Shown here: in pieces, positions 59,960 through 60,198 of the stretch
How positions within the stretch are numbered: the stretch's first letter is position 1
Layout of the letters: each line of letters begins with the position of its first letter
Virus record (IMG/VR): IMGVR_UViG_3300047557_002530
From: a virus
Lineage: Duplodnaviria > Caudoviricetes
DNA length: 64,000 nt
Strand: one strand, 5' to 3'
The notes under the pieces: generated by a model
The model's database searches: none
What the model was told of the DNA's origin: nothing
The model's input: the letters and a program-made list of their open reading frames with translations, nothing else
Position numbers and translations under genes: made by a program

Positions 59960-60198
59960 TGTTCAAGAGGATGCAAAGTCTGTTGCTTCGGACTGGGGTT
60001 CGATTCCCCACACTTCCATTTCGAGGGGGTGCATTGGTTTCGACGGGGTGGTAAGGTTGTATCTGTTGACGGAACAAACAAACAAACGCAAACAACATTG
60101 TTGCATTCTCTCGCAGTAATACTACTGCCCTTGTTTAGAGGGACGGGGTGATAACGGCCCTGTAAAGAAAGCGTTACGGGCAGTGAAATGCTGCCTTT
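59960..60198 (+). ncRNA. ssrA: circularly permuted two-piece tmRNA (acceptor piece about 59960..60018, coding piece 60025..about 60198)
   Basis: T arm TGGGG-TTCGATT-CCCCA plus CACTTCC-A precedes GGGGGTG-CATTGGTTTCGAC. G3-U70 pair present. Tag frame 60088..60138 reads ANNIVAFSRSNTTALV*. Confidence 0.9.

Follow-up and report, generated by a model that had tools for sequence, protein, structure and literature searches.

A cyanophage two-piece tmRNA whose tag ends in Leu-Val in place of the host Ala-Ala

The permuted tmRNA gene and its setting

The stretch of DNA analysed here, referred to as the window and 64 kb in length, is part of the genome of a T4-like freshwater cyanomyovirus (Kyanoviridae). 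No close record of the window was found in the phage collection, in which the top nucleotide identity is about 77% (S-SM2), and six studies of freshwater and lake metagenomes contain the exact stretch. The window carries an array of 21 phage tRNA genes, and inside this array lies a gene that ARAGORN calls as a permuted tmRNA (59929-60229) with the tag ANNIVAFSRSNTTALV followed by a stop codon. Two Rfam covariance models exceed their curated thresholds at this position, namely RF01851 (cyano_tmRNA; 112 bits against a gathering score of 70, 59944-60195) and RF04321 (tmRNA_permuted; 85 bits against a gathering score of 47, starting at 59969), and they place the gene in the cyanobacterial-type two-piece tmRNA class. 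The permuted order that characterizes this class is present, with the T arm and the 3' acceptor strand coming first and the 5' acceptor strand and the mRNA-like part following (Table 1).

Several other elements surround the gene. Besides a normal tRNA-His(gtg) at 59555-59627, a tRNA-His with the unusual anticodon ATG is called at 60386-60457, and a 120-base tRNA-like element at about 60465-60584 is called by neither ARAGORN nor Rfam. A match to the Rfam abiF RNA motif (RF03085; 58167-58203, 40.3 bits against a threshold of 37) is flanked by a sigma-70-like promoter (58094-58122) on one side and by the first array tRNA on the other.

Table 1. Features of the tRNA array and of the two-piece tmRNA gene, in positions of the window
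Feature	Position	Strand	Basis
Phage tRNA array, 21 tRNA genes, with the tmRNA inside	58208..63938	+	ARAGORN, Rfam
Sigma-70-like promoter TTGACA-17-TACTAT, with TG before the -10 hexamer, directly 5' of the tmRNA	59925..59953	+	10/12 matches, extended -10; predicted
Acceptor piece (3' half of the tRNA-like domain)	59969..60018	+	RF04321 match start, ARAGORN, sequence reading
T arm GGGGTTCGATTCCCC	within 59969..60018	+	sequence reading
3' acceptor strand CACTTCC	60011-60017	+	sequence reading
Discriminator A	60018	+	sequence reading
Six-base spacer between the two pieces	60019..60024	+	sequence reading
Coding piece: 5' acceptor strand, GGTTTCGACG box, tag frame, downstream helices, terminal hairpin	60025..60198	+	RF01851 match to 60195
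5' acceptor strand GGGGGTG	60025-60031	+	sequence reading
Tag reading frame ANNIVAFSRSNTTALV, 16 residues, plus TAG stop	60088..60138	+	sequence reading, ARAGORN
Two-tier helix around the tag end	60108..60142	+	folds of clade members; alignment to host and S-CAM1 helices
Outer helix, CTCTC with GAGGG	60108-60112 with 60138-60142	+	folds
Inner helix, GCAGTA with TACTGC	60113-60118 with 60123-60128	+	folds
Bulge CCTTGTTTA: last base of the Ala codon, Leu and Val codons, first two bases of the stop	60129-60137	+	folds
Leu (CTT) and Val (GTT) codons, non-canonical tag end	60130..60135	+	codon variants in 13 distinct clade members
Terminal hairpin of the coding piece	60177-60195	+	RF01851 match to 60195

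The two acceptor strands form a 7-bp stem (GGGGGTG/CACTTCC) in which, as read from the sequence, G 60027 lies opposite T 60015 to give the G3:U70 alanine identity pair, and CCA is not encoded, being absent from the DNA after the discriminator A of the acceptor piece. The processing of two-piece tmRNAs is known, and by analogy the spacer between the acceptor and coding pieces is presumably cut out during processing.

The tag frame reads GCA AAC AAC ATT GTT GCA TTC TCT CGC AGT AAT ACT ACT GCC CTT GTT TAG, with the alanine resume codon GCA at 60088 and the stop codon TAG at 60136-60138. The resume codon and the frame are set by alignment to host tmRNAs, which share the pattern GCN AAC AAC/AAA ATC GTT and the upstream context ACAAAY-GCN. 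An out-of-frame TAA at 60117-60119, taken as the stop in the RF04321 alignment, was rejected because the ANNIV frame is fixed by homology. An earlier note on this DNA had described a tag ending in ...TTALV at 60088-60138, and both the coordinates and the peptide prove exact according to the sequence, ARAGORN and the two Rfam models. The last two residues are Leu-Val and not the Ala-Ala of the ClpX C-motif-1 degron, and the Ala-Leu-Val terminus retains the non-polar C-terminal residues that are general among tmRNA tags.

The end of the tag is embedded in a two-tier helix. In the main clade of related phage tmRNAs, which is described below, the outer helix is conserved as CTCTC/GAGAG, and the window has GAGGG as its second strand. 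The inner helix is GCAGC/GCTGC in hosts and in S-CAM1, followed by C TGA, and GCAGTA/TACTGC in the window, followed by C CTT GTT TAG. When the sequences are aligned on this helix, the window would carry Thr-Ala in place of the final Ala-Ala of the host, and Leu-Val would represent two extra codons ahead of a stop that has shifted; the Thr results from a G-to-A change, which is offset across the inner helix by a synonymous AGC-to-AGT change. A plain sequence alignment instead sets the ALV of the window against the VAA of the host, and the two readings cannot be told apart with certainty.

The promoter block directly 5' of the tmRNA (GCTACTATATACA) is kept in S-CAM1, S-CAM3 and AG-345-P14, and we infer from its sequence that 59925..59953 functions as a promoter. 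For the coding piece, contigs are available from the metatranscriptome libraries of four lake studies; their cover sets in at 60037 or 60050, ends between 60173 and 60283, and leaves out the neighbouring tRNA genes. No RNA-library contig lies over 59804-60007, which includes the acceptor piece, although assembled contigs cannot show absence, ends or strand. Such patchy cover fits RNA rather than carried-over DNA, although contigs are no proof that the source is RNA. A variant strain present in the RNA libraries differs in the tag end only by a synonymous GCC-to-GCT change. The region's top depth (82.5, in X20) is found at 60398-60600, which holds tRNA-His(atg) and the uncalled 120-base tRNA-like element and is covered by RNA-library contigs from two lake studies.

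No gene for SmpB was found in the 64-kb window, in the complete genomes of S-CAM1, S-CAM3, S-CRM01 and Sf-FS3, all of which bear a tmRNA, or in the complete 249-kb genome that belongs to the same clade of Leu-Val tags; since only 64 kb of the phage is visible, its genome-wide absence rests on these relatives. SmpB is present in a host genome, and the phage RNA must therefore work with the SmpB of the host.

Tag ends in hosts and in phages

RF01851 scores above its cut-off in 129 of 151 Cyanobiaceae genomes, and the host sample comprised 88 permuted tmRNA tags (86 distinct sequences) from Prochlorococcus, Synechococcus, Cyanobium and Vulcanococcus genomes. All 88 tags end in Ala-Ala, nearly all of them as ...APVAA (APIAA and ASVAA occur once each and ALVAA twice), and the codons of this Ala-Ala turn over synonymously between GCT and GCC. 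In a sample of 68 one-piece tags from the wider cyanobacterial phylum, 61 end in AA and four in VA, the three that end in AG or AC look like mis-called frames, and none of the 68 ends in V or LV. The premise of the earlier note that host tags end in Ala-Ala is thus borne out in both samples, and the circumstance that it named as fatal to its case, a host tag that also ends in LV, occurs in no sampled host.

In three picocyanobacterial genomes, a second and weaker cyano_tmRNA match (168, 94 and 66 bits) accompanies the normal gene (L275, G015:C8:15487-15781; L276, G008:C11:308429-308665; L277, G038:C1:926930-927148), and one of the three lies 3 kb from the primary copy. ARAGORN calls no cyano-type tag on any of these second matches, and they may be copies or fragments that stem from islands or phages.

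A pattern scan of IMG/VR, combined with the GenBank cyanophages, yielded 86 cyano-type tmRNAs on viral DNA, the window counted. Their last two residues are AA in 31 tags, TA in 20, LV in 14, AV in 13, TV in five, AL in two and PA in one, and none of the 34 distinct viral tags has a polar, charged or truncated end. The comparison across phage tmRNAs therefore corrects the earlier note, which had treated the tag as a single oddity: LV is one of several recurrent non-AA phage endings. Clustering at 90% identity gives 12 AA and 25 non-AA clusters for viruses and 27 AA clusters out of 27 for hosts (Fisher p = 6e-9); clustering at 80% identity was dropped, since all hosts then fall into one cluster and the Fisher test becomes uninformative, and the 90% clusters were used together with the per-locus counts. 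The same viral scan also gave about 23 permuted tmRNAs of the alphaproteobacterial type, every one with an AA end, and the excess of non-AA ends is therefore no artefact of viral contigs.

In a tmRNA tree built without the tag-end columns, a single branch splits hosts from viruses (SH-aLRT 99 for the host clade), and at least eight switches between AA and non-AA ends are required, all of them on the viral side. The G+C content of the tmRNAs is 47% in viruses versus 53% in hosts. Two metagenome contigs (L320 and L362) carry near-identical tags that end in ...SRSRQLVAA and ...SRSRQLVTA, a pair that looks like a recent switch between AA and TA ends. The tags also vary at their other end: many cyanophage tags (L001, L002, L003, L005, L434 and many IMG/VR loci) carry a 7-codon extension from the resume codon to the ANNIV block (ANTSDSA-, AKTSDVA- or AKTDTPA-), which shows up in the alignment as 21 inserted bases when compared with the window and the hosts, and the S-SSM7-like tags additionally contain an internal repeat-like insert (AFSRILTREFAR...).

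Among other phage tmRNAs, the tag ends in ...AAALV in Mycobacteriophage Bxz1, in ...LAVA in both Enterococcus phage EFDG1 and Lactococcus phage phiL47, in ...LQVA in Bacillus phage G and in ...LVTA in Synechococcus phage S-SSM7, so that VA ends are found in three Firmicute phages (EFDG1, phiL47 and Bacillus phage G). Tags ending in AA are found in Streptomyces phage Jay2Jay, Mycobacteriophage Wildcat, Pelagibacter phage HTVC008M and Caulobacter phage phiCbK, and non-AA ends are common yet not universal in phage tmRNAs. In Bacillus phage G, ARAGORN also calls a suppressor-type tRNA with the anticodon TTA immediately upstream of the tmRNA (L429:1373-1446).

Selection on the Leu-Val end and the fate of tagged proteins

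The window falls within a supported clade (SH-aLRT 91) of tags that end in ...ALV and ...TLV. With extra scans included, the LV tags amount to 13 distinct tmRNAs at 21 loci, 62-100% identical to the window, and the contigs of the clade include one of 249 kb, rated complete, and one of 226 kb; a metagenome scan with a 17-base clade pattern returned mostly chance matches and added five cyano-type tmRNAs, three of them of the LV clade. The Leu codon of the clade is CTA, CTT or TTA, with a minimum of four changes on the clade tree, and the Val codon is GTT or GTA, with a minimum of one. These changes, at least five, are all synonymous, and both residues are the same in all 13 distinct sequences, for which the crude chance is about 0.013, a signal based on about five events. 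Folds of the main clade place both codons unpaired in the nine-base bulge, and base pairing therefore does not explain their conservation there; in the outlying member L112, both codons are folded inside a helix, and a constraint at the RNA level may act on them.

Synonymous variation is seen elsewhere as well. The terminal Val of the TV group is coded by GTA, GTC and GTT. Among 37 viral haplotypes, tag codons 1, 2, 4, 5, 7 and 9 vary synonymously only, and the synonymous variation within the first nine codons covers all four GCN and all four GTN codons, with Arg coded by both CGY and AGR; to judge from these sequences, the first nine codons are selected as a translated peptide. Because only synonymous changes are found at both the Leu and the Val codon, in a clade that reaches down to 62% identity, the comparison supports the view that the LV end is a selected feature and not the product of decay.

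Host ClpX, as represented by Synechococcus, retains the motifs GYVGED, SITRDV and GGRKHP (pore-1, pore-2 and RKH) unchanged, and we take these to correspond to Y153/V154, T199/V202 and R228/H230 of the E. coli protein. E. coli ClpX reads Ala-Ala-COO- through these residues, the Ala-Ala dipeptide is its top determinant, and substitution of either Ala raises the KM of E. coli ClpXP with little change in Vmax (PMC7652416). As the host ClpX keeps the motifs that read Ala-Ala-COO-, the bulkier Leu-Val end should bind the pocket less well, and it is a fair inference that the LV end would weaken recognition by ClpX. Hydrophobic C-terminal residues are a general rule for tmRNA tags (PMC4131195), and the abundance of EYFP in Synechocystis falls from the untagged protein through the ASV and AAV ends to the LVA end (PMC2860132). 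Since the terminus of the phage tag is still hydrophobic and V-terminal tags destabilise proteins in Synechocystis, a weaker or rerouted degron appears likelier than escape. The suggestion of the earlier note that tagged products are spared from ClpXP or rerouted can thus be kept only in part: weaker recognition is plausible, given the retained ClpX motifs and the effect of Ala substitutions on KM, and outright sparing is unlikely, given the hydrophobic end and the lower protein levels caused by AAV and ASV ends in Synechocystis.

Tagging by tmRNA is the main way in which bacteria clear the products of broken mRNAs, and since host mRNA undergoes large-scale degradation during phage infection, many ribosomes likely need rescue at that time. 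The explanation that we favour as a whole, with somewhat better than even confidence, is that of a working phage tmRNA with a remodelled LV end that is kept by selection and alters handling by ClpX. The phage would possess a functional copy of the host-type two-piece tmRNA gene, expressed within the tRNA array from a sigma-70-like promoter of its own, and the RNA, relying on host SmpB, would rescue ribosomes stalled on broken mRNAs during infection and add the tag ANNIVAFSRSNTTALV. The host-like N-terminal block ANNIV-x-F-x-R would have been retained and the C-terminus remodelled, with the Leu-Val end probably maintained through purifying selection in a clade of freshwater cyanophages, as one of several small or hydrophobic phage ends (TA, AV, TV, LV and VA) that replace the host Ala-Ala. 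The tag would remain a hydrophobic C-terminal degradation signal that binds more weakly to the pore of host ClpX, and tagged fragments would be degraded more slowly by ClpXP, or to a greater extent by ClpC-ClpP or FtsH, which accept non-polar C-termini. Mutation pressure in an AT-richer phage genome could be the source of many of the non-AA ends, A-to-V and A-to-T each being a single GC-to-AT transition.

Three other explanations can be weighed against this one. Any short non-polar C-terminus (AA, VA, AV, LV or TA) might be an equally good degron in cyanobacteria, in which case LV would be kept only because polar or charged ends are harmful, and the fate of tagged proteins would be unchanged. 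Every phage end seen is small or hydrophobic, hydrophobic terminal residues are general for tags (PMC4131195), four cyanobacterial hosts naturally carry VA, and V-terminal tags act as degrons in Synechocystis (PMC2860132). If all such ends were equivalent, hosts should drift too, yet Ala-Ala is kept in all 88 Cyanobiaceae tags despite the synonymous turnover of its codons between GCT and GCC; AAV and ASV are, moreover, weaker than LVA in Synechocystis (PMC2860132), and Ala substitutions raise the KM of ClpXP (PMC7652416), which leaves functional equivalence doubtful. Alternatively, a phage that needs only rescue might let the tag end drift under relaxed constraint and GC-to-AT mutation pressure (Ala to Val or Thr), with LV as a frozen accident after the loss of a stop codon. 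Most non-AA ends can indeed be reached from Ala by a single transition (GCN to GTN or ACN), the G+C content of the tmRNAs is lower in viruses (47% against 53% in hosts), AA and non-AA ends have switched at least eight times, and the helix alignment puts LV beyond the host stop position. Drift of this kind is nevertheless improbable, because the 13 distinct sequences, some as little as 62% identical to the window, show only synonymous changes at the codons for Leu and Val, the TV group likewise spreads its terminal Val over GTA, GTC and GTT, and polar, charged or truncated ends are missing from the 34 distinct viral tags.

The stronger form of the earlier note's proposal holds that the LV end abolishes proteolytic recognition, so that ribosomes are freed and their products are not destroyed. 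Some phages reportedly need the release of ribosomes by tmRNA rather than proteolysis (Withey and Friedman), and the ClpX pore motifs of the host are conserved, but if selection had favoured escape, the tag should tolerate charged or polar ends, of which the DD tag end is a laboratory example of the charged kind, and all phage lineages are strictly hydrophobic at this position. The peptide-level selection on the host-like N-terminal block also suggests that the tag is still read by something. The status of Ala-Ala as the top ClpX determinant (PMC7652416) speaks for loss of recognition and the degradation of V-terminal tags in Synechocystis (PMC2860132) against it, and we regard complete escape from proteolysis as a poor prospect.

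A broader extension of the favoured explanation, a remodelled end that alters handling by ClpX, is put forward only tentatively: phage tmRNAs may repeatedly and convergently have re-tuned the part of the tag that is read by proteases, keeping the part shared with the host, so that phage-tagged proteins meet a different fate. Such re-tuning would span the cyanophages (LV, AV, TV and TA), Bxz1 (ALV) and the Firmicute phages (VA). The retention of the tag body with Ala-Ala replaced, together with the convergence of unrelated phages, suggests at the sequence level that the fate of tagged proteins, and not ribosome release alone, is under selection in phages. If this is correct, the breakdown of phage-tagged proteins might be slower or fall to another protease, ClpXP could be kept free or the recycling of host fragments timed, and host protein quality control would turn out to be under phage control at a level not recognised before. 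Cyanobacterial engineering may also gain from the phage endings, as a natural set of degradation tags of graded strength.

Comparison with known tmRNAs and degradation tags

The two-piece cyanophage tmRNA gene itself is not new. In an earlier census, mycobacteriophages and Bacillus phage G were the only phages listed with ssrA (PMC4131195), and cyanophage tmRNAs have since been catalogued in S-CAM1, S-CAM3, S-CRM01, S-SSM7 and AG-345-P14 (Buchholz et al. 2022, PMC9004378). An analysis of tag sequences was not found in the text or supplement of PMC9004378, the tmRNA gene is unannotated in the cyanophage GenBank records examined, and no published analysis of cyanophage or phage tag ends was found in a search of papers outside the subscription journals, so that an earlier mention is possible. 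The contrast between host and phage ends, the apparent selection on LV and the parallel with Bxz1 are new.

The closest known system is the picocyanobacterial two-piece tmRNA (RF01851), whose tag is ANKIVSFSRQTAPVAA in Prochlorococcus and ANNIVRFSRQAAPVAA in Synechococcus and Cyanobium. It shares with the window the permuted order, the T arm, the G3:U70 stem and the GGTTTCGACG box; the context of the resume codon, the N-terminal tag block ANNIV-x-FSR and the two-tier helix that encloses the tag end are also common to both. In contrast to the picocyanobacterial hosts, which score 275-326 bits with RF01851, the tmRNA of the window scores 112 bits, groups with the viruses at the one branch that parts them from the hosts, has a promoter of its own within a tRNA array, and ends its tag in ...TTALV instead of ...APVAA.

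The catalogued cyanophage tmRNAs are of the same gene kind and from the same virus family (Kyanoviridae) as that of the window, and the S-CAM1 tmRNA is 83% identical to it over the conserved half. Several of their tags carry the 7-codon N-terminal extension, and their ends are VAA in S-CAM1 and S-CAM3, VTA in S-SSM7, ATA in AG-345-P14 and VAAL in S-CRM01, as against LV in the window; the tag of Sf-FS3, a 2025 record later than the PMC9004378 catalogue, ends in ATA.

The engineered ssrA variants AAV, ASV and LVA resemble the tag of the window in that their ends have been changed from LAA and are still non-polar, and the V-terminal versions destabilise more weakly, Synechocystis included (PMC2860132). 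Unlike the natural tag of the window, they were built in the laboratory from the E. coli tag and tested outside the picocyanobacteria, and a Leu-Val end is absent among them.

The tmRNA of mycobacteriophage Bxz1 (L279:1501-1935; NC_004687 100059-100495; tag ATDTDATVTDAEIEAFFAEEAAALV) differs from that of the window in its one-piece RF00023 lineage, in the unrelated phylum of its host and in the rest of its tag, which is acidic and unrelated. Like the tmRNA of the window, however, it is encoded by a phage within a tRNA array, and its tag, which ends in ...AAALV where the Mycobacterium tag strings in published papers end in ...YALAA, closes with the same Ala-Leu-Val.
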